From the NCBI GenBank assembly GCA_963977015.1, contig CAXBMO010000017.1:1-64000 (forward strand): a stretch of 64,000 nt of DNA. The letters are read 5' to 3'. Of this stretch, positions 1-15,117 are shown piece by piece (the stretch's first letter is position 1; every line of letters starts with the position of its first letter). Origin of the DNA: an uncultured bacterium (GTDB taxonomy: Bacteria > Verrucomicrobiota > Verrucomicrobiia > Verrucomicrobiales > DEV007). The position numbers and the translations under genes were made by a program. The notes below the pieces were generated by a model. That model was not told the origin of the DNA and ran no database searches. It worked only from the letters and a program-made list of their open reading frames with translations.

Positions 1-29
1 ATTTTTGATGGTCTCAGACCAAGCCCCGC

Positions 30-299
30 ATGTCTACCGTTTCGGGGGAAGTTCAGAAGGAACAATTCGGAGCATCTGAATACGATGCGAAGTCTGCAGC
101 TCTTCACATCCCGTGGGTCGGTGGTCACTGCCACAATTGCTCGAAGCGAATTCCACGCGGCTGGGTGTCCTGCAAAGCTTGCGGCGCGACCAATTATAAC
201 TTTCACGGACGACCAACTCTTGCTCAGCGTTTAGGGCTCGTCCAAAATCCAGTGCTAAAAGACCAACAAGCCGAACAAGCCGGCGATGGCGACGCCTAA
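30..299 (+). CDS. Small zinc-ribbon protein (cassette 1 gene)
   Basis: CHNC...CKAC double CxxC; ORF runs into attC1 and stops inside it. Frame +1 is also open 1-234, so the frame is not certain. Confidence 0.5.
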   Translation: MSTVSGEVQKEQFGASEYDAKSAALHIPWVGGHCHNCSKRIPRGWVSCKACGATNYNFHGRPTLAQRLGLVQNPVLKDQQAEQAGDGDA

Positions 300-400
300 C
301 CGCGGCCTTGTCGAATTTCGTTTCCGGTGGTTCAATCTCTTCAACCTAGCACGGAGCGCCGCCTCGATTCGGGCGTCGCGCCATGCCTCAAACGTTCTCC
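270..400 (+). mobile_element. attC site 1 (intact)
   Basis: R'' GCCGAAC (270-276), 5-nt spacer AAGCC, L'' GGC(G)ATGG pairing with L' CCATGCC with one extra base, inner stem CGACGCC/GGCGTCG, 6-nt spacer, R' GTTCTCC (394-400). Confidence 0.85.
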
Positions 401-407
401 TCAAAAA

Positions 408-833
408 ATGTTCCTGCGATACGCTCATTCCCCATCTTGCCTCCCCGGCTGGGCGATTGGTGTTCAGCTTGTCGTTGAAACAACGGTTGGATCTCAGGAC
501 GAACAGATTAAGGAGGCATTCGTCTATACGAAAGCACTTACGACAGACGCTTACGTTAAGGCAGGGGAGCTTGGATCAGTTGTTTCCACGAACATCACTC
601 CTGCGGAGATGACCCAAGAAGACCTAGCCGAATTTTCACGGACTATCGCAAAGGTATCGATCTCACCAGGAACCTATCCTTGGGCTTCGATGGATGGAGC
701 TCTATCCTCCTTAGCTGTAGATGCTGGCGATACCTCCATGACTGCCGAGTGGAACACCGAGCATTCCGAATCATGGAAGGGACTTAATGAGCTTCACTCG
801 ATGCTGGAGCTCTTCTACAAAACTTACAACTAA
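408..833 (+). CDS. Hypothetical protein (cassette 2 gene, ~141 aa)
   Basis: ATG 7 nt after R' of attC1; stop 9 nt before R'' of attC2; no recognised motif. Confidence 0.7.
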   Translation: MFLRYAHSPSCLPGWAIGVQLVVETTVGSQDEQIKEAFVYTKALTTDAYVKAGELGSVVSTNITPAEMTQEDLAEFSRTIAKVSISPGTYPWASMDGALSSLAVDAGDTSMTAEWNTEHSESWKGLNELHSMLELFYKTYN

Positions 834-847
834 AACTACCAAGGAGA

Positions 848-2720
848 ATCGGGTAGGCCCAGGGTTTGAACCTGGGCCCCCCACACCACCGGACGTGCGG
901 GTCCGCATCCGGCGGTTCCCATCAGTCATGGATTCTCCTTCGGGCGACCTTTCGGGCCGTCGGGATACCGAATGCTGATCCACTGGTTTGCGATCGAGGG
1001 AACGCCTTGTTGATCCAGCCATTCATTGGTCATCGCGGCCCTGACTTTTGAGTTTTGGCTCATCCGCCAGGGGCCTTTCCGACTCCTACTCGCCAGGTGA
1101 ACGCTCTCACGGTTGATCCCAAGTTTGATGAGGTTGCGTCTTCGGGTGCGGGGACGTCCCCACTGTTTCCAGTAGTACAATCGCATTCGTCGGCGTAACC
1201 ATCCGTCAAGGTCTCGGGCCTCGGCGTAAGTCATTCCAGGCTGGTAGTAGTTGACCGCTCCGCGAATGAATCGCTGCAAGTCTTCCATCACTTGGCGCGG
1301 CGAAACGCCACGCGTCCGTTTGGTGATCTCACGGATTCGTTCGCTGAATCGCTTCTTGGATTTCGCGTTCCACTTGATCCGGTTCTTCACAATGGTGAAG
1401 CCGAGGAAAGTAGCGTCGCAGAGCTCGCAGACGCGACTCTTGGCGCGGTTGACGATCAATTTCAGGCGATGCTCGATGAAGTGGCTGATGCTTGCCATCA
1501 CCCTCATGGCGGCCCGTGGGCTGCGGCAGAGGATGATAAAATCATCGGCGTATCGAGCAAAGGAGTGCCCGCGTTTCTCCAACTCACGATCGAGATCGTC
1601 GAGGAGGATGTTCGCCAGAAGCGGACTCAATGGCCCGCCCTGTGGCACTCCGCTGCAAGTGGGGTCGAGTTTGCCGTTCAGCAGCACGACTCCGGCTCGC
1701 AGGTATTTTCGGATCAGGGACAGAACCCGTCTGTCTTTGATCCGGCGTTCCAGGCGCGTCATCAACACGTCATGATTGACGGTATCGAAGAACGCTTTGA
1801 GATCGCAGTCGACCACCCATTTCCGCCGCTCCACTTTGGACTTTTGCTGGACAGATCGGATCGCATCGTGCGCACTGCGCAGCGGGCGAAATCCGTGACT
1901 GCTTTCGCTGAAAGTCGGGTCATAGATCGGGGTTAGGATTTGAGCGATCGCTTGTTGGATGACGCGATCGAGCACCGTCGGGATTCCGAGCGGGCGTTTC
2001 GTGCCATCCGGTTTCGGGATTTCAACGCGTCGAACCGGCGACGGAGCATAGCTGCCATCGTTCAGTTTTCGGCGAATCGTTTCCCAATGTTGGCGCAGAA
2101 AATCGGGGAACTCCGCGATTTCCATGCCGTCGACTCCGGCTGCGCCACGGTTTGCTTTGACGCGTTTCCACGCTTCCAGCAGGTTGTCGCGAGCCAGAAT
2201 CTTTTCCAGCAGATCATCACATGAACTCGCTTTCTCTGCCTGAGCAGCGATAGGTCTGACTTCACCTGTCGGCTTCGTTGTCGGTTTCGCTGTTTCAGGT
2301 CGGTTCATCTGATTAGGTTCGGTCCTTCGCTTCCGCGTGAGTGTTCCGGTATCGTTGTTTAAGCGGGCCTCTGAAGGCCCCCGGCTCTTCGGTTCGCTAC
2401 TATGACCTCGGCTGACTTCTCCATCGGGCTTCCCCGACGGAGATCTCCCCAGATAAGGTGCTGAAACCTCCGCCACCCAACCGCCTCATTTACCTCCGGG
2501 ACTGAATGAGGGAAGTTCGCTGTGTTGTGCCAGCTCGTTCCATCCCGTCGGCCTCGGATGAGGTTCTTGTTCATCGGCTGATGGTTGTCCCATAGCCTGC
2601 CTCCCCACAATCGGTCACCCGACTGCAGTTGGCTTCTGGTAGTTCTTTTCATCTTTCAGATGTTCATTCTATAAACAGGGGACTTGAACCCCATTTGGTT
2701 TCAGCCCATGCTGGGCGTAC
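848..2720 (-). mobile_element. Group IIC (attC-targeting) intron, full length
   Basis: Minus strand starts GTACGCCCAGCATGGGC (IIC-type 5' end) and ends with DV GAACCGCCGGATGCGGACCCGCACGTCCGGTGGTG and DVI ...CCTACCCGAT; contains an RT ORF; antisense within attC R''. Boundaries +/-2 nt. Confidence 0.92.
926..2308 (-). CDS. ltrA: Group II intron reverse transcriptase/maturase, no endonuclease domain
   Basis: RT0 NRGAAGVDG, IPKPDG..RPLGIPTVLDR, SHGFRP, PQGGPLSPLLANI, RYADD, FLGF, domain X. ATG at 2308 preferred over the upstream TTG at 2476. Confidence 0.95.
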   Translation of the reverse strand: MNRPETAKPTTKPTGEVRPIAAQAEKASSCDDLLEKILARDNLLEAWKRVKANRGAAGVDGMEIAEFPDFLRQHWETIRRKLNDGSYAPSPVRRVEIPKPDGTKRPLGIPTVLDRVIQQAIAQILTPIYDPTFSESSHGFRPLRSAHDAIRSVQQKSKVERRKWVVDCDLKAFFDTVNHDVLMTRLERRIKDRRVLSLIRKYLRAGVVLLNGKLDPTCSGVPQGGPLSPLLANILLDDLDRELEKRGHSFARYADDFIILCRSPRAAMRVMASISHFIEHRLKLIVNRAKSRVCELCDATFLGFTIVKNRIKWNAKSKKRFSERIREITKRTRGVSPRQVMEDLQRFIRGAVNYYQPGMTYAEARDLDGWLRRRMRLYYWKQWGRPRTRRRNLIKLGINRESVHLASRSRKGPWRMSQNSKVRAAMTNEWLDQQGVPSIANQWISIRYPDGPKGRPKENP

Positions 2721-2854
2721 CCAAGCCGGCGCACTCAACTCGATACTCGCTTGGAGACGATTGACTTCCGTGGCTCGATTCCTTACTCTTGATTCGTGGC
2801 CGCGCTCCCAGTATCGAGCGAGCGGCCATTTACGTTCTGCCGCAGCCGATTGAA

Positions 2855-3691
2855 ATGATACCAGCACGAACTACAATGCCTTCCATTCGATCAGCTCATT
2901 GGTTAGGCGTCTCTCTCTTGATCGCTTGCGCTCCAATCTACGCAGATGGCCCTCTAAGTGTTCTCGAGCAATTGGCAAAATCCGATCCCAAGCCATTTGC
3001 AATTTTGGAGGCAAGCGGAGAGGGCACCGTGAACCGGGGGCAAGCAGTAGTGATTTCTTCGCATGGGCACGTTCTTTCGGCTGGCCACATTGCCTGGATC
3101 GAAGCTGACAAAGCCTTCGCAGAGAAGTTTCGAATCAACTTTCGAAGCAGCAGTGAAGACCGGCCAGAGGGAACAACTCACACCCACAAGTTGGAATTCA
3201 AGGACAATGAAAGCGCTACGTTTTTTGAGCACTTTTTTCCCGCAGACCTCAAGAAGCAGGAAGATTCGAGATTCATCGCTGCGGGTGATCTTGCCCTCTT
3301 CAAGATCAAGGCCGAAGGACCTTTCCCCAAATTGGATTTCTTTTCGGAGAAAAGGCCCACTTTAGAAATGGGAGACACTCTGCATCTCTGCCACTATAAT
3401 TTCCCTCATAAGGCAGGTGACCCTTTCTTCCTGATCAATCCGGTCGAAGTCGTAGGTGTTGCCCAGACATCTTGGGGAATGCAGTATCTCGCGAAAGGTT
3501 ACTACCGGATTGGCTCGAGTGGAGGGGCGATTCTCAAAGACGGTCGGCTGATTGGCATTCAGAGCTCTGCCTACACTGTAAATGCGAAGGACATTGGTGA
3601 GATTCCTCTAGGACTTGTGTCCTTCCAACTGGTGTGGAGTGGGATGTTTGACGGACAGCTGGGACCTCAGACTGACGATGTCGAAGAGTGA
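2855..3691 (+). CDS. Secreted trypsin-like serine protease (cassette 3 gene)
   Basis: Signal-peptide-like N-terminus; VLSAGH, GDLALFKI and GSSGGAI triad motifs; start at 2855 or 2876, just after R'. Confidence 0.8.
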   Translation: MIPARTTMPSIRSAHWLGVSLLIACAPIYADGPLSVLEQLAKSDPKPFAILEASGEGTVNRGQAVVISSHGHVLSAGHIAWIEADKAFAEKFRINFRSSSEDRPEGTTHTHKLEFKDNESATFFEHFFPADLKKQEDSRFIAAGDLALFKIKAEGPFPKLDFFSEKRPTLEMGDTLHLCHYNFPHKAGDPFFLINPVEVVGVAQTSWGMQYLAKGYYRIGSSGGAILKDGRLIGIQSSAYTVNAKDIGEIPLGLVSFQLVWSGMFDGQLGPQTDDVEE

Positions 3692-3719
3692 ATTCAATAC
3701 CGCAATAATCACACGATAA

Positions 3720-3906
3720 GCAGAAGCGGGTAGAAGCAGGGGTTGAACCTGCTCCCCCGTTCAATCACGCCCCATGCTGGGCACACCGTGCAGTGGTGAC
3801 CGCCCCTCCTCCGCTGCACAGTTGAATGTGAGGGTGGACGTGCCATCATGATTCATGCCCAGATGCTCGCCGCCCGCGACGATCGGGATCACTTTGGACG
3901 TTAGCC
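3720..3906 (+). mobile_element. attC site 3, interrupted by a miniature intron remnant
   Basis: GCAGA|AC CGTGC AGTGGTGA ... GATCACT TTGGAC GTTAGCC (R' 3900-3906); restored R'' GCAGAAC is complementary to the previous R' GTTCTGC. Confidence 0.75.
3725..3786 (-). mobile_element. Miniature (~60 bp) group IIC intron derivative: 5' end fused to domain VI
   Basis: Minus strand reads GTGTGCCCAGCATGGGGCGTGATTGAAC-GGGGGAGCAGGTTCAACCCCTGCTTCTACCCGCT; both ends resemble the ends of the full intron. Confidence 0.85.
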
Positions 3907-3910
3907 AAGA

Positions 3911-6151
3911 ATGAAAAACCTTCAGCACGATGGCGCGAATTGCCCGATGCATCCGCAAAGAACGAGCAACGTTAACCATCGTGGCAAGAGGTGGCGGCAC
4001 GCTATCGTGACGGCGTTCCTTTGCTGCTTTTCGGATGGCAGTCTGATCGCCAGCGAAGAGCCTCCCTTCACCGATTACTGCCAACGACTTGAGCAGGAGA
4101 TTCAAGGCCGAAAACACGGTTTCCTCGCCGGAAACGTGACCTACTACGTCGGCGGATTTCACGCCAGTTGGAAGTTGGTCGAGGATGAGACGATCGGCTT
4201 GACACACCCATTTCATCATGACCTTCGCAGTCGCGGTGCCGGCTTGGTCGAGAGCGAGCTCGAGGGCACGGAGCACACTGGAATCGGCAACGACTACCTG
4301 AACTGGGAATTCTACAAGGACACCAGGGTTCTCTACGGAAGCGTCACGATCAATGGCAAGACCTACGAGCACCCGAAACCAAAGAGCATGCGATGGCGTC
4401 CCGATCGAATGATCTGCGAATACGAGCTCGGGGACGTGACGATTCGGGAAGAGAAGTTTATCGCCGCCAACGATGCGGCTGCGTCGATCATCACGGCCTC
4501 GAAGCCGGTGACGCTCACCTTTTCCGGGCACAGCTTCTACACCCGAAACAGCAAATCTTCGTCCGCCACGATCAGCGTGGATCCAGCGAACCGAATGCTC
4601 GTAATTTCCGAGGGAGGGACCGCGAAATGCCGCCCCGATCCGGATCGGGCGGAGCGTATCGGCCCCAGCGTGTATTCCGGCATGACAACGGTGTTGCGAG
4701 CGTCCCGCGATTTCCTCGAACCCGTCAGCATCCGGAAGGATGAGGGCGGTGTTCAACACTACACCTTTTCCGTTCCCTGCGACGGCGAGGGCACCACGGT
4801 ATCCTGGGCGATGCACGATGACCGCGACTTCGCGGTTCAAGCCGCCCGTGACATCATCCGGCACGACGCGGCCTGGCTATCGGCGAAGACTGCTGAACTG
4901 AACCGGCAGCTGAACGAGGAGATCCCCTGGTTCCGATGCCCTGACAAGAAGTTGGTCGATATCTACTACTACCTCTGGTCGCTCTATCTGATGTACTACA
5001 TCGACGTCGACCGGGGCTGGGAGATGGAGAACCACACCCAGACCGCGGTGAACAACTTTCTCGGCATCCACCGTTACGATGCAGCCTTCCAGATCAAGGT
5101 CGGTGCCTGGACGACCGACAAGCCGAGGTATGCCTACGGCAACGTGCTCACCTGGAAGCATCTCACCGAGAACGACCGCTATCGAGAGCTCCCCAATGGG
5201 CTGAGGATGATCTCCGACAACAAGGGGATCTCCTGGCACAGCGGCGCCTACGGGGCGGAGACTTCCGAACACGTTCTCGGTGCCTGGCAGATCTACGAGC
5301 ACACCGGTGACACCGAGTTCCTGAAAGCGTGCTACAAGGGCCACTTCGAAAAGCTATACCGGAAACGTCTTTCGAACTTCGCGATGAACGAGTTTGAATT
5401 GGCCGAGACGCTTGAAAAGATGACCCGGGTAGTCGGGAATGCTGCCGATGTGGAACATTGGCAAGAGATGATCCGGCGTGATCCCGAACACATCCGCCAG
5501 ATGTTCGATCAGCGGTGGGAAATGAACGGAGTGCCGGCCTACTTCGCCGCCCCGAAGAACGGCATGTTGATGACCAACGCCTTCTGGGCCATGCGCTCCC
5601 GTCACTTCCCGAGGGAATACGCCAGGGAGATGGTCGATGCCTGGGCTCTCGATCGGGAGAAGGGCTTCTACGGAGAGTTCTTCCCATTGGCCATGGCCAG
5701 GCAGTCGATGCTGGCTTTCAAGACCGACGTCGATCACTCATTCGGCTACACTCCCGACACCGCCTACTTCACCCTCGATGGGATGTTCTGTCAGGGAGTG
5801 GAGGAGGCCGCCGAGCTGACGCTGAACCACCTCACCAACTACAACTACCACGACGAGTGGCAGATCCCGGTCGCGCCGGAGGCCTACAGACGGGATCTGA
5901 CGCTTTTCGGTGACCAATACTCCAACTTCAATGCGGGGAAAATCCTGCTCTATCTCGAAGGCCTCGGAGGACTGCACTACTCGCTGCTCGCCCGCCAACT
6001 CACCATCCGGCCCGCCCTGCCCAGCGCCTGGGACTGGATGGAGATTCGACTTCCCATTGCCAATCAATGGACAACCATACGATACACCAAAGACGGCATT
6101 GACGTCACCGGTTGCCCGCTTCAAGTCATCCAAGCGCCCGTCGAAAAATAG
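3911..6151 (+). CDS. Putative secreted glycoside hydrolase, (alpha/alpha)6-barrel type
   Basis: 746-aa ORF, signal-like segment, aromatic-rich, IYYYLW and C-terminal RPALPSAWDW motifs reminiscent of six-hairpin glycosidases; family not determined. Confidence 0.55.
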   Translation: MKNLQHDGANCPMHPQRTSNVNHRGKRWRHAIVTAFLCCFSDGSLIASEEPPFTDYCQRLEQEIQGRKHGFLAGNVTYYVGGFHASWKLVEDETIGLTHPFHHDLRSRGAGLVESELEGTEHTGIGNDYLNWEFYKDTRVLYGSVTINGKTYEHPKPKSMRWRPDRMICEYELGDVTIREEKFIAANDAAASIITASKPVTLTFSGHSFYTRNSKSSSATISVDPANRMLVISEGGTAKCRPDPDRAERIGPSVYSGMTTVLRASRDFLEPVSIRKDEGGVQHYTFSVPCDGEGTTVSWAMHDDRDFAVQAARDIIRHDAAWLSAKTAELNRQLNEEIPWFRCPDKKLVDIYYYLWSLYLMYYIDVDRGWEMENHTQTAVNNFLGIHRYDAAFQIKVGAWTTDKPRYAYGNVLTWKHLTENDRYRELPNGLRMISDNKGISWHSGAYGAETSEHVLGAWQIYEHTGDTEFLKACYKGHFEKLYRKRLSNFAMNEFELAETLEKMTRVVGNAADVEHWQEMIRRDPEHIRQMFDQRWEMNGVPAYFAAPKNGMLMTNAFWAMRSRHFPREYAREMVDAWALDREKGFYGEFFPLAMARQSMLAFKTDVDHSFGYTPDTAYFTLDGMFCQGVEEAAELTLNHLTNYNYHDEWQIPVAPEAYRRDLTLFGDQYSNFNAGKILLYLEGLGGLHYSLLARQLTIRPALPSAWDWMEIRLPIANQWTTIRYTKDGIDVTGCPLQVIQAPVEK

Positions 6152-6204
6152 AGTGTTGCGTTTCGGCGCTTCGCTGCTTCGCTCCACAGATTTTCGCGTT
6201 AGGA
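6145..6204 (+). repeat. Possible degenerate attC remnant
   Basis: Imperfect inverted repeat (AAAATAGAGTGTTGCG / CGCTCCACAGATTTT) followed by GTTAGGA at 6198-6204; the expected R'' GGCTAAC is absent. Confidence 0.3.
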
Positions 6205-6240
6205 TTCAGCAATCCCAATTCGCGTGAGAATGGGGCCGCC

Positions 6241-7677
6241 TCAGGCGAAGACGTCCATGACGGGTTTTCCGTGCCCGTCTTTCGTCGCGAAGAAGGGACG
6301 TTTCTCGACTTCGTAAGCCGTTTTGGGACTGATGCCCATGGCGGTGAAGATGGTGGCGTGGAGATCCTCAACCGAAACCGGATTCTCGACTGCGACCAAC
6401 GGACGTTCATCGGCGGTTCGTCCGTAAAGGTGGCCGCGCTTGGTTCCGCCGCCGAACAGGGCGACGCTGGTGCCGCCGGTGAAGTGGCGATGGAGCCCGT
6501 AGTGCTTGAGTTCGCCGAGTTGATCGGCGCGAGCGCGGGACTGGTCCTTGGCGTTGGAGCCGGGAACGCCTTCAATCATCATGTCGCGGCTGAATTCGCT
6601 GGCGATGACGACGAGGGTGTTTTCGAGCATGCCACGTTGTTCGAGATCGAGGATGAGCTGGGCGATGGGGCGATCGATCTCGTCTTTGAGACGCTTGACG
6701 GTGGTGTGGCCGTTTTCGTGGGTGTCCCAGTGGACGAAGGGGATGTACTCGGTGGTGACCTCGACAAAGCGCGCGCCTTCTTCGACGAGACGACGCGCGA
6801 GGAGGCAACCGCGACCAAAGCGGCCGGTGTCGTAGCGGTCGCGAGATTCCACGGGCTCAAGCGTGAGATCGAAGGCTGCCTTCTCCCGCGATTGCAGGAG
6901 GCGATGAGCCGCGTCCATGGAGCGAAGCATGGACTGCTGCTGATAGTCGCTCATGAATTCGCGATTCGGGTTTTGATTGATGAGCTTCTGGTAATGGCGA
7001 TAGCGGTTGGCGAAGCGCCCGGGTTCCATGCCCTTGGGCGGCTGCACGGAGCGGACGGCGTCTTCCGGGTAGGGCAGGTTCATCGGTCCATATTCGGTGC
7101 CGAAAAAACCACCGGTGGTGAAGGCTTTGAGTTCTTCCTTCTCGCCAACGCCTTCGAGGCGCTGACCGATGTTGATGAAGGGCGGCATGATCGAATTCCT
7201 GGGGCCGAGCACCTTGGCCATCCAGGCTCCGAGATGAGGCGCGGCGACGGTCAGCGGCGGGACATAGCCGGTGTGCCAGTGGTATTGGTGCCGGGAATGA
7301 AGGATGTGGCCGAGGTCCGGCTGAACGGCGGAGCGAATAAGCGTTCCGCGATCCATCACCTGGGCGATGTTCTCCATCCCCTGGGTGAGCTTGATGGGAT
7401 CGACGGCGGAATCGATGGCCGGGAAGGTGCTGAGGATCCGGTCGACATCGAGCCCTTTCTCAAACGGGAGATAGCGTTTGGGATCGAACGTGTCCGGTGC
7501 GGCCATTCCACCGGCAAGCCAGATGAGGATGCAGGAATCCGCCTTGGCGGGCGGATGAACCACGTTCCCGGAGTTGGCCCAGGCACGGGTTCCGGTCGTT
7601 CCCAAGGCGGCGAGGGACGCGGCGCCCAACTGCTTGAGCAGGTCGCGACGGGCGAGGTTTTCTTCGTGGGTATCCAT
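6241..7677 (-). CDS. DUF1501 domain protein
   Basis: Tat-like RRDLLK, LIWLAGG...DTFDPK, CLLARRLVEEG, WDTH, SEFSR, DLHATI. Confidence 0.9.
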   Translation of the reverse strand: MDTHEENLARRDLLKQLGAASLAALGTTGTRAWANSGNVVHPPAKADSCILIWLAGGMAAPDTFDPKRYLPFEKGLDVDRILSTFPAIDSAVDPIKLTQGMENIAQVMDRGTLIRSAVQPDLGHILHSRHQYHWHTGYVPPLTVAAPHLGAWMAKVLGPRNSIMPPFINIGQRLEGVGEKEELKAFTTGGFFGTEYGPMNLPYPEDAVRSVQPPKGMEPGRFANRYRHYQKLINQNPNREFMSDYQQQSMLRSMDAAHRLLQSREKAAFDLTLEPVESRDRYDTGRFGRGCLLARRLVEEGARFVEVTTEYIPFVHWDTHENGHTTVKRLKDEIDRPIAQLILDLEQRGMLENTLVVIASEFSRDMMIEGVPGSNAKDQSRARADQLGELKHYGLHRHFTGGTSVALFGGGTKRGHLYGRTADERPLVAVENPVSVEDLHATIFTAMGISPKTAYEVEKRPFFATKDGHGKPVMDVFA

Positions 7678-7702
7678 GAGAAGTCGGGGTTGGAAGACGG
7701 GG

Positions 7703-9592
7703 TTAACGAATGATCTGAAACTCTGGCTGCATGAACACGAGCCACAACACGTCTTCGAGAGCGACGAGATCCTGAGTGGCGACTTCGTTGATCACCGCTC
7801 TTTCGTCAGCAGTGGGCAAGCGCGCGAGCGCGTATTGGTATAACCAATCGACAAAGCCGCTTTGGGTTGCCTTTGATGCCAGCAACTTCGCGCCGGCGGT
7901 GAGGTAACCGGCGAGGATATCTCCATTGGCCAGATCGATTGCCTGCAGGGTGGTGAGTTCCTTGGGCCGTGTGGTCACGACTTGATCGCGGTGAGGGCGA
8001 CCGAGAGACCGCATGAGAAAATCGTTCTTGACCAAGGCCGCCCGAACCGGAGGAACCTGAGCCTTCCCGCCTTCGATGGAGATTTCGCGATTCACCTTGG
8101 CCTCGGCTTTGGCGGGGTGCGTCCCGGTGATTTGCCAAATGGAGTCGACGAATTGCTCGGCGGTCATGCGCTTGGCGATGGGCCCGGCATAGGAGTAATC
8201 GGCACCCGGTTCCTTCTCCAGAATCACGCTTTGTGATTGATAGGCCTGTGAGGTCATCACCAAGCGGATGAGCTTGCGCAGATCGTAGTCATCTTCCGCA
8301 AAACGCACCGCGAGAACATCGAGAAGATCCTCATTCCAGGGCTTCGTGTCCATGGCATCAACGGGGTGAACGATTCCCCGTCCCATGAGCCGCTCCCACA
8401 TGCGATTCACCACCGTCCGGGTGAACCGGCCGTTTTGTGGGTGCGTCATCAGGTCCGCCAACTGCTGAAGCCGCGCGGCCTTGGGCGCTTGCGGATCGAC
8501 GTCGCCCAGTTCCGGGAAAATCCAGCGCGGTGTCGCCATGACGCCGATGGGCTTGTCGCAGCGGTTGAGTTCCAGCGGTGCATCGGAGAAGATCGCGGCA
8601 AGGTTGTAGGCCTCGGACAGCTTCCAACGATCGATGAAGCTATCGTGGCAACTGGCGCACTTCATATTAATGCCGAGAAAGACTTGGGAGATGTTTTGTG
8701 AGAACTGGATCTCCCGTGTCTGGCTCGCATTGACGTCGCCGCGCCATTTGATGCCATTGATGAACCCGGCGGAGGCGTCGCCCGGAGGCGCGATCAACTC
8801 GCGGACGAATTGATCGAACGGGAGATTCTCGCGCAGCGCGGCGTAAAGCCAGGTTGTGATTTGGGTCCGGCCCTTGGTGATGAAGCCGGTGCCGGTATAG
8901 TCGTTGCGCAGCAGATCATTCCACGTCGTGAGCCAGTGATCCGCATAACCAACATCATCCGCCAAGAGCGAGTCGATCGCCTTCGCTTTTTTGTCCGGAT
9001 CGGTATCGGCCAGAAAGGCGGCAAGGTCCTCCGGCGTCGGCAGGAGACCGATGGCATCCAGCGTCGCCCGGCGCAGAAAGGCCGCGTCAGACGCCACGGG
9101 CGGCAGTGGCTCCCCATGCTTTTTGAGATGGGCGTCGAGAATCCGGTCAACCGGGTGGTCCCTCCCCTCTTGCGCCGGAGGCAACGCGACAACACGCGGC
9201 CGCAGCGGCGGTTCCCAAGCCGATTCACCCAAGGTGACTCCCGGTTCCCACGGCAATCCCGCGTTGATCCATTTCTTCAGGGTCGCGATTTCGTCCGGCG
9301 AGACTCGCGGTCCTTTCGGCGGCATCGCGTCAACCTCATCCGTCGATTCGATCAGCTCGATCAACCAACTGGCGGACGCGTCTCCCGGCACGACGACTTC
9401 GCCATTTTCGCTTCCGGCCAACAACTCGGCGCGAGTGTTCATGGCCAGTCCGCCCTTTTTCTTCTGACCCGTATGGCATTCGGCACAGTGCGTCTTGAGA
9501 ATCGGCATGACCTCATGGGCAAATTCGATCGCGTGAAGCGTTGGCGAGAGGAACGCGGAGGCGCAGACAAGCAGGAGGGGATTTCGAAACAT
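7703..9592 (-). CDS. Planctomycete cytochrome c / DUF1549 / DUF1553 protein
   Basis: CAECH, MPPKG, HPVD, FLRRATLD, CASCHD, NRMWERLMGRGIV; usual partner of DUF1501. Confidence 0.9.
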   Translation of the reverse strand: MFRNPLLLVCASAFLSPTLHAIEFAHEVMPILKTHCAECHTGQKKKGGLAMNTRAELLAGSENGEVVVPGDASASWLIELIESTDEVDAMPPKGPRVSPDEIATLKKWINAGLPWEPGVTLGESAWEPPLRPRVVALPPAQEGRDHPVDRILDAHLKKHGEPLPPVASDAAFLRRATLDAIGLLPTPEDLAAFLADTDPDKKAKAIDSLLADDVGYADHWLTTWNDLLRNDYTGTGFITKGRTQITTWLYAALRENLPFDQFVRELIAPPGDASAGFINGIKWRGDVNASQTREIQFSQNISQVFLGINMKCASCHDSFIDRWKLSEAYNLAAIFSDAPLELNRCDKPIGVMATPRWIFPELGDVDPQAPKAARLQQLADLMTHPQNGRFTRTVVNRMWERLMGRGIVHPVDAMDTKPWNEDLLDVLAVRFAEDDYDLRKLIRLVMTSQAYQSQSVILEKEPGADYSYAGPIAKRMTAEQFVDSIWQITGTHPAKAEAKVNREISIEGGKAQVPPVRAALVKNDFLMRSLGRPHRDQVVTTRPKELTTLQAIDLANGDILAGYLTAGAKLLASKATQSGFVDWLYQYALARLPTADERAVINEVATQDLVALEDVLWLVFMQPEFQIIR

Positions 9593-9697
9593 GGGGTTTT
9601 CCGGAGGGGCTCGTTCAAGGTAGCGCCTCCAAGGGTTCCCTGACAAGCCTCACCTTGAGGATGTTCGCGAACGCCCATGCTTCCGGCGCGGTTGCCC

Positions 9698-10702
9698 TCA
9701 AGAACCGCAAGCGACGGCGGTGGTGGCGACAGCCTGACCGGGGAGACCAAAGGCGACGTCGTTCGCGTCATTCCACGACCAACCGTAGAATCCATCGTCG
9801 AAGTTTTTGGCACGGTAGCCGAGGAGGGTCGCGACGAGGAAGGACAGGCTGGAACGCCACCCGGTGCCGCAATAGAAAATGAGGGCGGTGTCGCGTTGTT
9901 TGACTCCCTCATCGACGATCCCCAGCTCGATCCATCGCCGCCGGACCTCTTCGAGAACCGGGCCGACCTTGTGGGTTTCACTCTCCACGAGATTGATCCA
10001 GTTTCCTTGAAGGACGGCGTTGGGGATGTGACCGGCCTTCGAAAAGAAAGGGTAGTAACGCGTTTCCGTGCCGTCGTATTCCCCGGGCCGGCGAACATCT
10101 ACAAGGCGCGCCGGGACGCCGGGACGTGAGGCTGCGATTTGCTTCACCTCAGCGGTGGTGGCGAGATATTCCGGTTTCCCCGGCCAGGCCGGGAATGGAT
10201 CGCTGAGCGGCAAGGCGGATTCGGCCACATCGATGGCGCGGGGAATCAACGGGACGGAGGCGCCACCGAACGCGAGCCAGGCATCGATCCCGCCGTCGAG
10301 AAGGCGGATGGTTTCAACCCCGGCAACCATCAGCCCCCAGATCAATCGGGCCGCCGCCATGATTCCATCCGGTTCGGTGCCGTAAACCCACACTTCCCGG
10401 TCCGGAGTGATGCCGAGCGCGCGAAGAGCTTCCGTCAACCGCTCGGGAGGGAGAAGATTGCCGTCAGCAGGACACTGGTAGTTGGGGTAGTAGCGGGATT
10501 GATCCGTTCCCGCTTCGAGAAAGGAGGGATGGACCTGGATCGCCTTGGGAATGTGTTTGCGCACCGGAAGATCACCCTCCAGCGGATGATCGAATGAGGA
10601 GAAGTGGGCTTCGAGAATGATGCGGGGAGCGCCGTTGCCATTGCTTTCCATGGCTTCGCGAGCGGCGAACACTTCGGGGGTGACGAGTTGGAAATCGGTC
10701 AT
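9698..10702 (-). CDS. Tandem rhodanese-domain sulfurtransferase
   Basis: HIPKA, LLDGGIDAW, VDVR..GEYDG, GHIPNA, YCGTGWRS, DDGFYGW. Confidence 0.85.
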   Translation of the reverse strand: MTDFQLVTPEVFAAREAMESNGNGAPRIILEAHFSSFDHPLEGDLPVRKHIPKAIQVHPSFLEAGTDQSRYYPNYQCPADGNLLPPERLTEALRALGITPDREVWVYGTEPDGIMAAARLIWGLMVAGVETIRLLDGGIDAWLAFGGASVPLIPRAIDVAESALPLSDPFPAWPGKPEYLATTAEVKQIAASRPGVPARLVDVRRPGEYDGTETRYYPFFSKAGHIPNAVLQGNWINLVESETHKVGPVLEEVRRRWIELGIVDEGVKQRDTALIFYCGTGWRSSLSFLVATLLGYRAKNFDDGFYGWSWNDANDVAFGLPGQAVATTAVACGS

Positions 10703-10873
10703 TGAGGGAGGCTTCGGGAAAATGGATGGGGAGCGCTCCCCATACACGGAAACGCGATGCCGAAAATTCACTTGGAATGAAAGGACTTTCCAAATTCACG
10801 GCGCCGATGGACTCCGAAGCTGCTTTTCCTCGCGGATCTGGCCTGGCAAGCGGACAATTCGCCGATCCTGAAC

Positions 10874-11320
10874 TCACTCGGACTCGCCAAACTGAAGATG
10901 CTTGAGCGTGGCGATGTGTTTCTGCGCTTGGGGCAACAACTGCTTCTCCACCATCTCCCGGCAGGGTGACGGGGTAGTTTCGTCGTCAAGAATGGCCTGG
11001 TAGTTGGCGAGTTCAAGTTCCTCACCGTTCTGCAGATTCGACAGGATGGTTTGCGATCCCAACACGCTGGAAGACGATTGAATGGTGTAGGCGAGTTTGC
11101 CCCAGGTCCCTGAATCGGGAGCCGGCGCGCTCCCGAGCGCTCCAATCTTGACTTCCAGCCCGGCGATGGCCAGGCGGTGGTCGTTGAGGATTTGATCCAG
11201 GGTCCGGGCCTTGGGATCATCACCATATTTCTTAATCGCCAGCTGATAGGTTTCCACGGCTGAGCGGCTGGCCGTCAGCATCTTGTTGAAGACGGCGGCT
11301 TGCTGTTTGAAGTCTTGCAT
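10874..11320 (-). CDS. PA2169/DUF2383 ferritin-like four-helix protein
   Basis: 148 aa; DSGTWG, GEE...Y, HI..L pattern. Confidence 0.7.
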   Translation of the reverse strand: MQDFKQQAAVFNKMLTASRSAVETYQLAIKKYGDDPKARTLDQILNDHRLAIAGLEVKIGALGSAPAPDSGTWGKLAYTIQSSSSVLGSQTILSNLQNGEELELANYQAILDDETTPSPCREMVEKQLLPQAQKHIATLKHLQFGESE

Positions 11321-11347
11321 GGGGTTATTTGAGGTTGGTTTTATTCT

Positions 11348-11375
11348 ATACTAAGACTTCGGATTTGGCTGACAA
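11348..11375 (-). promoter_or_regulatory. Candidate sigma70 promoter
   Basis: Minus strand TTGTCA-N16-TAGTAT about 30 nt upstream of the 11320 start. Confidence 0.35.
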
Positions 11376-11520
11376 GGCAGAGCTTGCTGCTTCCTGCCTG
11401 TAATTTGTCACCAGACACGGCGCGGAGTGCCAGGAAACCAGCGCGCTCAAGGTCGCAGCATCATGATGTGGATCTGAATTATGGCGTGCTTTGGCTTTCT
11501 CTCGCAGACTCCGAGGGAAA

Positions 11521-12798
11521 ATGAACCATTCGATGAGACATAGTCGGCGTCACTTCCTGAGATCAGCGGGAGTCACGATCGGCCTTCCGTTCCTGAGTTC
11601 CCTGGCGTCGGCGAACTCGAACTGGCCGAAGCCGCCGTCCACCAAACGAATGGTTTTTGTCTCCACGGGACTGGGCATGCACCCCGACTCTTTCTTCCCG
11701 AAGGACTTTGGTCTGGATTTCACGCCTTCGCCCACGCTGAAACCGATGATGCGGCACAAGGGAGACTTCACGGTTTTTTCCCGAATGGATCACCCGCAAA
11801 TTCACGGTGGTCACGGTGGGCCAAAGTCGTTTTTGAACGGTCTTCCGGGAGGCGCCTTCAAAAGCGAAAAAATCACGAGCGTGGATCAGGTTGCCGCCCA
11901 CTCCCTCGGTTACGTCACCCGTTACCCGTCCCTTCACATTGGCGTGGGCGGGCGAGCCGCGTCCTCCTACAGCGAATCGGGAATCAGGCTAAGGCCCGAG
12001 GGATCTCCTCAACAGTTGTTCAAGAAGCTCTTTGTCAATGATAGTGAAGCGGCGAAAAAGGCGCTCGCCGTCGAGATCGAGGAGCAGGGCAGTGTCTTGG
12101 ATTTGGTGAAAGGTCAGGCAAAGATGCTGGAGCGAACCATCAGTCGAATCGACCGCGAAAAACTCGATGAGTATCTGACGGCCATCCGCGATGCCGAGCA
12201 GCGGCTGCAAGGGCTGAAACGCTGGCAAAACGTCAACAAGCCGACGCTTCAGGCGTCACCGTTTGAGGACAAAGAGAAGGACGATGACGGCTACGAGTTT
12301 TACGTGCCGATTCTTTTCGATCTCTTCCACCTCGCATTTCTCTCCGATTCCAGCCGGGTCGTCACGCTCAACTATGCGATCCACAACAACCGCATCCCCC
12401 TGCCCGGCGTGACAAGTGGCTATCATAGCCTCTCCCATCACGGCAGACGCCCTGACGCACTCGCCCAGCTGCAAATCATCGAGGGCTTTTACCTCGAACA
12501 AGTGGCCCGCCTTATCGATAAGCTCAAAGACTCCCAAAGCATGGGCGGATCCATGTTCGATGAAACCATGGTATTCTTTGGCAGTGCCCTGAGCGATGCG
12601 GCGCGCCACTCCAATCGGGATTTGCCGATCATGATCGCAGGAGGCGGGTTCAAGCACAAGGGACACTACAACGCGATCACGTCTCACAAACGGCAAACGC
12701 CGTTGAACAATCTCTTCACCACGATGCTGCAAAATTTCGGCGTTGAAATTGAGAAATATAACGACGCCACCGGCGATCTTTCTCATATCCTCACCTAG
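11521..12798 (+). CDS. DUF1552 domain protein
   Basis: SRRHFLRSAGVTIGLPFL, SVDQVAA, DREKLDEYLTAIR, YHSLSHH, HSNRDLP..IAGG. Confidence 0.9.
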   Translation: MNHSMRHSRRHFLRSAGVTIGLPFLSSLASANSNWPKPPSTKRMVFVSTGLGMHPDSFFPKDFGLDFTPSPTLKPMMRHKGDFTVFSRMDHPQIHGGHGGPKSFLNGLPGGAFKSEKITSVDQVAAHSLGYVTRYPSLHIGVGGRAASSYSESGIRLRPEGSPQQLFKKLFVNDSEAAKKALAVEIEEQGSVLDLVKGQAKMLERTISRIDREKLDEYLTAIRDAEQRLQGLKRWQNVNKPTLQASPFEDKEKDDDGYEFYVPILFDLFHLAFLSDSSRVVTLNYAIHNNRIPLPGVTSGYHSLSHHGRRPDALAQLQIIEGFYLEQVARLIDKLKDSQSMGGSMFDETMVFFGSALSDAARHSNRDLPIMIAGGGFKHKGHYNAITSHKRQTPLNNLFTTMLQNFGVEIEKYNDATGDLSHILT

Positions 12799-12819
12799 AG
12801 CAGTTCATTCAAAACGAAT

Positions 12820-15117
12820 ATGAAGTTCCGTACTCTATGGGGGATCGTGTGTGCGATCTGGCTGGCCGCATCCGCTCTTGCTTCCGAATACCAACCGATC
12901 ATTCCCTTTCTCAACGAATACTGCATCAGTTGCCATGGTCCTGACGAACAGGAGGGCAACGTGAGACTGGATGATGTGCGAAAGATCGACGGCGCACTGT
13001 GGGTCGAAATTTTCCATCAGATCGACCAGAGTGACATGCCGCCGCTCAAGGCGGAGCAACCTCCCGCCGCGTTGAGAGAAAGCATCAACGAACTGATCAT
13101 GGCGGTGTCTTACGACGACAGGTTTACGATTACGACGGGGTATCGGCGACTGAACAAGCGCGAATATCACAACACGGTGGTCGATCTGCTGGGCCTCTCA
13201 GAAGAGTTGTTCAATCCTTCGGCGGACATCTATCCGGACGAAATTGAGGAAGGCTTCGATACGAATGCGGAGAACCTGGAGATCTCCAACGAGCTGTTGC
13301 TGGAGTTCCTGCGATCCGCCGAGAAAAGTCTGCGCACCGCCATCTTCACGAGCGAAACGGAAAAGCCGGAGGTTTCCACCATCACCTTGCCTGCAGGCCG
13401 GCTTGGCTCGACCGGCCAGTTCAGTTCCAGCAACAAACAGGCGGCGGCAACCATGGTTCGAGACGGGACCATCATCGTCAAAAATGGAAGCCAAGTGATC
13501 CAGCAGACCGGGACATATCGCGTCAAGGTTAGTGCGATGGGTAGGAATCGGGCGAACTACCCCAGGTTCAAGAAACCTCAACCTGGCGAGCCTTTCCGGA
13601 TGGAGCTTGGCGTTCACTATCAAGGAAACACGAAGTTCTACCAAAAATTTGAGGTTCAGGAAGATGGGTTTGATGCCTACGAAGGCGAAGTTTGGTTGGA
13701 GAAAGGCGCCTCTCCTTTTGTGAGTTTTACCAATGGGCAGTTCAAGCCCAGGAACATCTTTCGAAAACTGAACCAGCGAGTGCCGATGCCCGCCCTGGTC
13801 GTCAATGAGATGACGATTGAAGGGCCTCTGGATGTCGAATGGCCTCCCGCCACCTACAAGACCACCTTCCAGATCAAGGATCGTGCTCCCAACTTTGCCA
13901 GCTCAGCAGACCGTCGGGTGATTCTGCGAAACTTCGTCTCACGGGCCTATCGTCGCCCGGTCACGGAAAAGGAACTCGAAGGCTACATGATTTACATGAA
14001 TCAGCAGCACGCGAAAGCGGATGATTGGCGCGAGGCGGTGATTCGCACCTTTGCCGCGGTCATGGGTTCAAATGACTTCCTTTATCTTAAGGAAGATTTG
14101 GGTCGTCTCGAACCGTTCCAACTGGCGAGCCGACTCTCTTACTTTTTGTGGAGCAGCATGCCGGATGCCGAGTTGTTCCGGCTGGCAAGCACCGGCGAGC
14201 TCACCGACCCCGAAGTTTACCGGGAACAGATCAAGCGAATGTTCTTCGATCCAAAAACCGAGAACTTTATCACCGGCTTCGGGTCGCAATGGCTTTCCTT
14301 GACGAAGCTCGGTGAAATGCGCCCTGACATTGGACGAAAGGCCTACTTGGATTACTACAAGTATCGCGCTGAGGATGCGATGAGGCAGGAAACCCTGCTC
14401 TACATCAAGCATGTCCTGCTTCAGAATCAGCCGATCGGGGATTTCCTCGATTCCGACTACACCTTCCTGAATGCCGGGCTCGCCAAAATCTACGGACTGC
14501 CTTTTGAAGGCGGAGCCGAACATGTCCTTTACAAACTGCCGGAAAATTCCACCCGAGGCGGATTGTTGGGTCACGGCAGCATCCACGCCGTCACCTCGAA
14601 CGGAGTTGAGACCCTGCCTGTCACGAGAGGACACTGGGTTCTTGATGAGCTGATGGGAACTCCTCCTCCGCCTCCACCGGCGGAAGTCCCGGCTCTGGTT
14701 GCGGACCTCACAGGTCTGGTTTCGCCGCGGGCTCAGTTGGCGAGACACTCCGAAGATCCTGCCTGCTTCAAATGCCACCAGCACATGGATCCCCTGGGCC
14801 TGACCCTGGAGGCTTTTGACATCATTGGGCGCGACCGAACCAGTTATGGCCGGGGCAATCCCATTGATACATCTGGTGAGCTTTTTGGACAGCAGTTCGA
14901 CGATGTTCGCGGCCTGCGCAAAGTGCTTAAAGGCAAAGAGCAACTGTTCGCAGAAGGGCTCGTCACCAAAATTGCAGAGTATGCCAAGGGAAGAACATTG
15001 AACCGCAAGGATCTGGATATCGTGGACGAGATCGTCAGCGGAGCGAAGGCTTATGACTACAGATACATGAACATCATGAGAGACATCCTTGTGAGCGATT
15101 TGATTCTGAGTCGGTAA
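12820..15117 (+). CDS. DUF1587/1595/1592/1588/1585 cytochrome c protein
   Basis: CISCH, RRLNKREY.NTV.DL, LASRLSYFLWSSMPD, TRGHWV, CFKCH..MDPLG. Confidence 0.9.
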   Translation: MKFRTLWGIVCAIWLAASALASEYQPIIPFLNEYCISCHGPDEQEGNVRLDDVRKIDGALWVEIFHQIDQSDMPPLKAEQPPAALRESINELIMAVSYDDRFTITTGYRRLNKREYHNTVVDLLGLSEELFNPSADIYPDEIEEGFDTNAENLEISNELLLEFLRSAEKSLRTAIFTSETEKPEVSTITLPAGRLGSTGQFSSSNKQAAATMVRDGTIIVKNGSQVIQQTGTYRVKVSAMGRNRANYPRFKKPQPGEPFRMELGVHYQGNTKFYQKFEVQEDGFDAYEGEVWLEKGASPFVSFTNGQFKPRNIFRKLNQRVPMPALVVNEMTIEGPLDVEWPPATYKTTFQIKDRAPNFASSADRRVILRNFVSRAYRRPVTEKELEGYMIYMNQQHAKADDWREAVIRTFAAVMGSNDFLYLKEDLGRLEPFQLASRLSYFLWSSMPDAELFRLASTGELTDPEVYREQIKRMFFDPKTENFITGFGSQWLSLTKLGEMRPDIGRKAYLDYYKYRAEDAMRQETLLYIKHVLLQNQPIGDFLDSDYTFLNAGLAKIYGLPFEGGAEHVLYKLPENSTRGGLLGHGSIHAVTSNGVETLPVTRGHWVLDELMGTPPPPPPAEVPALVADLTGLVSPRAQLARHSEDPACFKCHQHMDPLGLTLEAFDIIGRDRTSYGRGNPIDTSGELFGQQFDDVRGLRKVLKGKEQLFAEGLVTKIAEYAKGRTLNRKDLDIVDEIVSGAKAYDYRYMNIMRDILVSDLILSR

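Follow-up and report, generated by a model that had tools for sequence, protein, structure and literature searches.

Does a 62-nt sequence that carries the two ends of a group II intron, joined directly to each other, represent a recurrent or programmed element, or is it what remained of an ordinary intron after a deletion? The sequence in question lies on the minus strand at 3786..3725 of the 64,000-nt stretch of DNA that was analyzed (the window), which corresponds to bases 1-64000 of contig C17 in a genome of 6.9 Mb and 51 contigs and encodes planctomycete-typical genes (DUF1501, PSCyt1/2, PSD1). A previous description made from the letters of the DNA without database searches (the sequence-only reading) had proposed that an element of about 60 bp at this position consists of a IIC 5' end fused to a whole domain VI (DVI). 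This description was accurate: the minus strand reads GTGTGCCCAGCATGGGGCGTGATTGAAC joined without a gap to GGGGGAGCAGGTTCAACCCCTGCTTCTACCCGCT, a group II intron 5' end followed by a complete DVI, 62 nt in total. We refer to this sequence as the stub; it is documented by the sequence itself, by alignment, by a contig of sequencing run X3 and by metagenome scaffold L018.

The 5' segment of the stub (28 nt, 3759..3786, minus strand) opens with the 16-mer GTGTGCCCAGCATGGG and is made up of a GTGTG terminus of the GUGYG type at 3786..3782, the CCCAGCATGGG hairpin and a 12-nt linker. Its first 16 nt are identical to intron 5' ends found at C6:270468 and C4:401229 in the same genome. When the stub was aligned with eight other 5' ends, it tracked the intron family to nt 32, through the 16-nt head, the 12-nt linker and a GGGG. 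In the family, this GGGG is the 5' half of the stem in the first DI hairpin (GGGG-TTCAAGT-CCCC). In this alignment of nine 5' ends, the switch to DVI falls inside a run of five Gs at 3758..3754, and homology to intron 5' ends may extend across these Gs as far as 3755. The DVI segment (34 nt, 3725..3758, minus strand) contains the G-run, a helix of AGCAGG/CCTGCT, a TTCAACC loop, the CTAC branch region and a 3' GCT, and closes with AGCAGGTTCAACCCCTGCTTCTACCCGCT. It folds as a 9-bp hairpin. Compared to the DVI of an intron from a related genus (genome G008), 2 of its 34 positions are changed, with A>C in the loop and A>C at the penultimate base; the helix and the CTAC branch region are kept, and the terminus reads CT. 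The stub lacks DV, the exon-binding sites and the reverse transcriptase, and DI is reduced to its first ~32 nt.

The window contains the 5' motif GCCCAGCATGGG in two places, in the stub and in a full intron nearby (0.40 occurrences expected; at least two in 8 of 100 shuffles), and a DVI pattern matches twice in the window while none of 100 shuffles contained any match. A search of 3400-4100 against Rfam at E<=10 returned no match, RF00029 included. These comparisons of sequence support the assignment of the stub to a class-C-like group II intron of which only the ends remain. The sequence-only reading had also placed the internal junction beside a GTT/AAC triplet. An AAC does stand at 3761..3759, but the join itself lies within the G-run, and the AAC is merely the end of the 12-nt linker, which is variable and reads CTAC, AAAT, AGAA or GGAA in other copies; no significance of the triplet is supported.

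The DVI stems of the stub and of the nearby full intron differ by two compensated pairs (AGCAGG/CCTGCT vs CCCAGG/CCTGGG), which indicates that the stub and the full intron descend from different lineages of one intron family. This had been anticipated from the sequence, and introns with the AGCAGG/CCTGCT stem are indeed present in genomes G007, G008 and G017. In the suggested search for the parental intron, a DVI only two substitutions away was located in G008, and no intron with the 12-nt linker of the stub was found in 120 other genomes of the host family.

The first DI hairpin (GGGG-TTCAAGT-CCCC, window 2690-2675) and the DVI hairpin (..AGG-TTCAAAC-CCT.., window 873-858; stub 3748-3736) both contain GGTTCAAnnCC, which resembles a tRNA T-loop. 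The likeness of these two hairpins to each other may favor deletions between them. The T-loop-like GGTTCAAnCC, together with the 9-mer CTACCCGCT that also ends a tRNA-like sequence at C1:385709, led us to consider the stub as a tRNA fragment. This candidate was rejected: ARAGORN predicted no tRNA in 1-8000, the register of the helix does not match that of a tRNA acceptor, and the 9-mer has 88 matches in the genome, which is about the level expected by chance according to our own estimate.

The neighboring intron is full length (1873 nt, 848..2720, minus strand) and is of a different lineage from the stub, differing in both DVI stem and linker; the two lie about 1 kb apart in the same orientation. 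On the minus strand it matches Rfam models RF02001 (D1-D4) at 2459-2624 with 99.8 bits and RF00029 (DV/DVI) at 848-917 with 46.4 bits. Comparison with the copy at C4:398021 places its 5' end at GTACG at 2720, rather than at a GTGCG 12 nt upstream. The intron-encoded protein ORF (926..2476 as listed, minus strand) matches the Pfam domains RVT_1 (1.3e-42) and GIIM (1.3e-14), and no endonuclease domain was matched in this ORF. A hairpin at 2716..2759 (arms 2716-2726 and 2749-2759, 82% complementary) stands directly 5' of the intron, which thus sits directly 3' of a hairpin and 14 nt past the stop codon of ORF 327-833.

The layout at the stub is the same. The stub lies within a 219-bp spacer, antisense to both flanking plus-strand genes, 33 nt past the stop codon of a trypsin-like peptidase gene (2789..3691; Pfam Trypsin_2, 1.4e-06; GC3 0.53 vs 0.76 in neighboring genes) and upstream of a gene for a 746-aa protein with a weak Pfam match to the GH65 C-terminal domain (3911..6151; GC3 0.763). 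An antisense ORF at 3761-4864 that overlaps the stub was dismissed as spurious given its GC3 of 0.579, against 0.763 for 3911-6151, and its lack of any domain. An imperfect hairpin at 3785..3822 (arms 3785-3796 and 3811-3822, each of 12 nt, 83% complementary, with 14 nt between them) abuts the 5' end of the stub. Both the stub and its neighbor are therefore inserted directly 3' of a stem-loop, the type of target used by class C introns. The two hairpins are unlike each other. The plus-strand ORFs 327-833 and 2789-3691, which come before the full intron and the stub, respectively, have GC3 values of 0.51 and 0.53 compared to 0.76 in neighboring genes, and this suggests from base composition that they are foreign or cassette-like.

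A more specific claim of the sequence-only reading was that the stub sits in an attC site, at the same R'' position as the full intron. In an attC, paired R'' (RYYYAAC) and R' (GTTRRRY) cores close an imperfect hairpin of roughly 57-141 nt. The orientation relative to the full intron was correctly described, but no RYYYAAC/GTTRRRY core is present at the stub insertion point. The sole GTTRRRY-like heptamer at the site, GTTGAAT at 3821..3827 on the plus strand, is flush with the hairpin and unpaired there; elsewhere in the window a lone R''-type heptamer, GCCTAAC, is found at 294-300 with no partner. Two heuristic attC-like scans of C17:1-12000 returned nothing at the stub and one unrelated match at 9666-9767; these scans were also silent beside the integron integrase gene on C1 and yielded no attC consensus for this genome. 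This gene (C1:216518-217420; TIGR02249, 291 bits vs a cut-off of 265) is the sole integron integrase over the cut-off in the genome. Neither an integrase nor an array of similar attC sites was detected near the stub, where the contig begins at window base 1 and covers that much of the upstream side.

Group IIC-attC introns are described, in PMC3001079 and PMC7923331, as inserting in the bottom strand, opposite to the cassette genes and between a gene and its attC, and the latter gives a consensus junction of TTGT/T. In agreement with this pattern and with introns of the S.ma.I2 lineage, the stub occupies the bottom strand opposite to both adjacent genes, between the peptidase stop codon and the hairpin, and its 3' exon starts with T. 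Other copies in the same genome have TTGT 5' exons, and copies in related genomes stand in arrays and near intI. The likeness ends at the exon junctions, which read CACG/T at the stub and TTGG/T at the neighbor, both departing from TTGT/T, and at the R'' core and attC, neither of which was detected at the site, and the integrase, which is not nearby. A canonical attC site at the stub is unsupported by these data, and the earlier claim to that effect was not borne out.

It was also necessary to consider whether the junction exists in the DNA or was created by an assembler that collapsed a full-length intron. A 151-nt contig from another sequencing run, X3, aligns to 3716-3866 with 0 differences and spans the junction, extending 43 nt to one side of it and 108 nt to the other. 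Metagenome scaffold L018 is identical to window 11-13371 (13,361 nt), stub included, and may derive from the same data. Contigs from two other studies flank the junction, at 3518-3758 (run X5) and 3758-3953 (run X1), and neither runs on into other sequence. The end of the former and the start of the latter thus fall exactly on junction base 3758. We estimate a probability of about 1e-4 that, of 12 piece ends, 2 would coincide on one given base out of 951; depth is low, at 2-4x, and parts of 3300-4250 are uncovered in runs X1, X3, X5 and X6. The ends at 3758 may mark a point where the assembly graph branches because a second allele, such as an undeleted parent at the same site, diverges there, or they may be due to chance at a depth of 2-4x. 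These coinciding ends favor an artefact, as does the observation that intron repeats break assemblies in related genomes, where many copies lie at contig starts. The X3 contig bridging the junction, on the other hand, excludes assembly collapse, and L018 carries the same sequence, though possibly from the same data; a shared stretch of 1-5 nt of G would in addition be too short to yield a false join in a 31-mer graph. We regard an artefact as scarcely credible, and the bridging contig speaks against the collapsed intron that the sequence-only reading had named as a refutation.

If the stub were a recurrent or mobile element, further copies with the same ends and the same junction would be expected at different sites, as for a MITE. 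Only one copy was found. Within its own 6.9-Mb genome the DVI pattern has four matches, and the stub alone is without DV. Its 24-nt 5' segment, searched with up to 3 mismatches, was present in one of 121 family genomes, and a relaxed ends-only pattern (5' motif, at most 61 nt, DVI loop and tail) in one of 134; in both cases this was the genome of the stub. No second ends-only copy was found elsewhere in this genome or in the 133 other family genomes. Among 185,579 species genomes, stricter versions of the pattern matched once, by chance and within a coding sequence. In a metagenome collection they matched twice, at the stub locus itself (L018) and, again by chance, in a coding region, and in a plasmid collection not at all. 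Collection matches L017 and L019 both fell within coding regions and were set aside as chance. The collection-wide patterns required exact CCAGCATGGG and CTACCCG, and in two large scans also CCCT, so an ends-only stub from a different intron lineage would go undetected, and the collections searched may not include the genome of the stub. The search for additional copies that had been recommended on the strength of the sequence was in this pattern-based form negative for family genomes, species genomes, metagenomes and plasmids alike.

Other intron debris is common in the genome. A tblastn search with the protein of the neighboring intron identified two full-length copies (C17 and C18), fragments at C31 and C41, and a match to the reverse transcriptase domain with 33% identity at C6:343603-344484. 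BLAST and motif searches identified intron fragments on C4, C6, C8, C16 and C31, giving a genome with two intact introns of the neighbor's type and many fragments. A minimal relic at C4:401208-401229 (minus strand) consists of only the 5'-terminal 22 nt of an intron, following a TTGT junction and a long hairpin. Some 3 kb from it, C4:398021-396981 (minus strand) is an ORF-deleted, insertion-bearing copy of the neighbor lineage which keeps nt 3-428 and 1793-1872 in the numbering of the neighbor.

Truncation and deletion are likewise frequent in related genomes. The loci fetched from these genomes, which are not a random sample, contain 68 distinct DVI-like copies, 65 of them with 60 nt of upstream context. 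The 3' strand of DV is kept in 49 of the 65 and missing in 16. On visual inspection, chance accounts for about half of the 16, and the rest are true remnants cut or deleted at different places, e.g., leaving 25, about 28 or about 40 nt of the 3' end, or with a small deletion that affects DV itself or the stretch between DV and DVI. The 5' motif was found within 120 nt of 0 of the 68 DVI-like copies. The terminus is AT in 61 of 68 copies, and the first exon base is T in 61 of 68. The CT terminus of the stub is thus a departure from a conserved splice signal.

These results lead us to interpret the stub as an inert, one-off internal-deletion relic of a class-C-like group II intron and a product of ordinary decay, a reading to which we assign a probability of roughly 85%. 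With DV, the catalytic center, the exon-binding sites of DI and the protein all gone, the stub cannot act as an intron, and its position in a spacer antisense to both genes means that there is no selection for splicing; we infer that it has no function. Its single occurrence and the differing endpoints among its homologues favor a one-off scar over a recurrent element. The sequence-only reading had offered both a deletion scar and a recurrent, non-autonomous or programmed element; only the scar stands, and a single occurrence with varied deletion and truncation endpoints among homologues, which that reading had itself named as the mark of simple decay, is what was observed. Several points weigh against this reading. 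GTGTG, the first hairpin, the DVI helix and the branch region are intact, with DVI only two changes from that of a relative; this fits a young relic and, judged from the sequence, would also fit conservation. Others are the pair of contigs, from two other studies, that end and start at base 3758, and the failure to find, in 120 other family genomes, a parent with the linker of the stub by which decay since the deletion could be gauged.

For such a relic to arise, the parent intron would have inserted directly 3' of the hairpin and antisense to the flanking genes, as its relatives did, and a single deletion of ~1.8 kb would then have removed its middle. The endpoints would be the GGGG of the first DI hairpin (intron nt ~29-32) and the G-run at the base of DVI, joined with 1-5 nt of G microhomology. 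This could have occurred after insertion, at the DNA level, through slippage or illegitimate recombination, or by a template jump of the reverse transcriptase between the two G-runs while the inserted RNA was being copied. Group II reverse transcriptases have an established ability to switch templates. A second allele at 3758, if real, would favor the route through DNA after insertion. We infer a deletion, and the data do not choose between the two routes.

Degraded introns of this general kind are well known. Fragmented group II introns are commoner than full ones in bacteria according to PMC7923331, and internal deletions and remnants of RmInt1 are documented in PMC4181065. As in the RmInt1 remnants of Sinorhizobium and the 5'-truncated introns of CALIN elements, the stub is an intergenic, non-functional leftover in a setting where fragments outnumber intact copies (PMC4181065 and PMC7923331). 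The documented fragmented introns considered here are hundreds of nucleotides long or 5'-truncated; in contrast, the stub is 62 nt long and keeps both termini. No bacterial ends-only group II intron was found in the literature searched, a search whose scope was the articles without their supplementary files. ORF-less bacterial introns that are mobilized in trans share with the stub an internal deletion and the presence of intact relatives in the genome (e.g., L021 1830..1141 in G008, and C4:398021-396981), but these retain DI-DVI and can still be ribozymes, whereas the stub keeps no catalytic core. The stub is then an unusually clean relic, with both termini kept and a microhomology join in a G-run. 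It is a small data point on the erasure of group II introns by internal deletion besides 5' truncation, and matters little alone.

One alternative would be a working miniature intron or non-autonomous element, excised or mobilized in trans by the ribonucleoprotein (RNP) of a full intron, as a bacterial counterpart of the group III introns of Euglena. The latter are 90-120 nt long and sometimes have only DI and DVI motifs without DV (PMC4424553); the stub is similarly a miniature group II derivative with a 5' end and DVI but no DV. Its GTGTG, DVI helix and bulged-A region are intact, and a full intron lies only 1 kb away. Euglena group III introns are, however, numerous, located in essential genes and spliced, while the stub is single in every search, intergenic and antisense to both genes, with a mutated 3' AY that reads CT rather than AT. 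Its EBS region is gone, leaving nothing to pair with exons, and the neighbor that would have to serve it belongs to a different lineage with another DVI stem and linker. A working miniature intron is for these reasons very unlikely. The same low credence applies to the idea that stub RNA is recognized and excised, or copied, in trans by the resident class C intron RNP in a group III-like manner; were this true, the contig ends at 3758 would reflect an ongoing interconversion with a full-length allele. A programmed or integrase-mediated deletion inside an attC, with a cut at the GTT/AAC triplet, would draw on the AAC that adjoins the join, on the integron integrase encoded in the genome, on the GTTGAAT flush with the hairpin, and on relatives' introns that occur in cassette-like arrays or within 1.3-2 kb of intI. 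Yet the linker ending in this AAC is variable among copies and the join is within the G-run, the CACG/T junction departs from the TTGT/T published in PMC7923331, no R''/R' pair was detected at the site, the integrase is on another contig, and no second such product was found in 134 family genomes. We consider a deletion of this kind extremely improbable.

A relic could also have acquired a new role, e.g., within a recombination site, or as an RNA hairpin by which the peptidase transcript is terminated or stabilized. The DVI hairpin forms on the plus strand as well, 34 nt past the peptidase stop codon, and runs from two or more additional studies contain the stub sequence. Against such a role, no promoter- or terminator-like site was found in 3550-4000, and the fold of 3715-3830 is ordinary (z = -1.51; 16 of 200 shuffles fold as well). 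Conservation of the site could not be seen among genomes of the same genus, as homology to G002 and G003 begins only at window 4054, inside the downstream gene, leaving no comparable spacer. Re-use of the stub is in our judgment improbable, and the reading as an inert deletion relic is retained.

The setting of the stub is more interesting than the stub itself. The host family is rich in class-C-like intron remnants, and in some relatives these stand at about 1-kb spacing in cassette-like arrays, and also beside integron integrases. In genome G121, DVI-type motifs at C44:105333 and C90:65117 lie 1.3 kb and 2 kb from integrase genes (C44:103100-104023 and C90:62101-63045, respectively), indicating that introns of the host family do occur in integrons proper. 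Locus L021 (G008:C5:1-9000, minus strand) has intron 3' ends at about 1141, 2443, 3740 and 4983, a spacing of ~1.3 kb. The copy at L021 1830..1141 is a 690-nt ORF-less intron with DI-DIII, DV and DVI and the junctions TTGT and TCTGC; the other copies in this locus are truncated at the 5' end or carry a deletion within DV. Three integron integrases in G008 exceed the cut-off, and they are located on contigs other than C5.

Locus L057 (G017:C25:72000-84000, minus strand) contains seven units about 0.8-1.2 kb apart, with 3' ends near L057 positions 2892, 3846, 4724, 5541, 6466, 7667 and 8722. Six of the seven share a conserved unit of 330-400 nt with sharp ends and unique flanks, in which TAACAG is followed by interlocking inverted repeats, the 3'-terminal ~170 nt of an intron (end of the reverse transcriptase ORF, DV and DVI) and CCCGAT|TAGCC. 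The 5' half of the unit has only one other match, L024, in the same genome. From its sequence organization, L057 resembles an array of cassettes in which the 3' remnant of an intron forms part of the repeated recombination-site unit.

Two further observations concern the 3' ends of introns in this family. In one sublineage the terminal loop of DV is replaced by an insert of ~65 nt (…GCGAAGCGACATCGATAGCC…GGCAAGGGAGGAACGACCGC…) with a small hairpin of its own. The insert was seen in the genome of the stub (G000) at C6:269658-269822, in L007 and L010, in the L057 units, in L058 near 1910 and in L059 near 591; its presence in several genera means that it is not a one-off. In G000, a 5'-truncated copy at about C31:26856-26930 ends in a tandem triplication of the last 10 nt of the intron plus 4 nt of exon (CCTACCCGATTAGC three times), followed by two copies of a related 14-mer.
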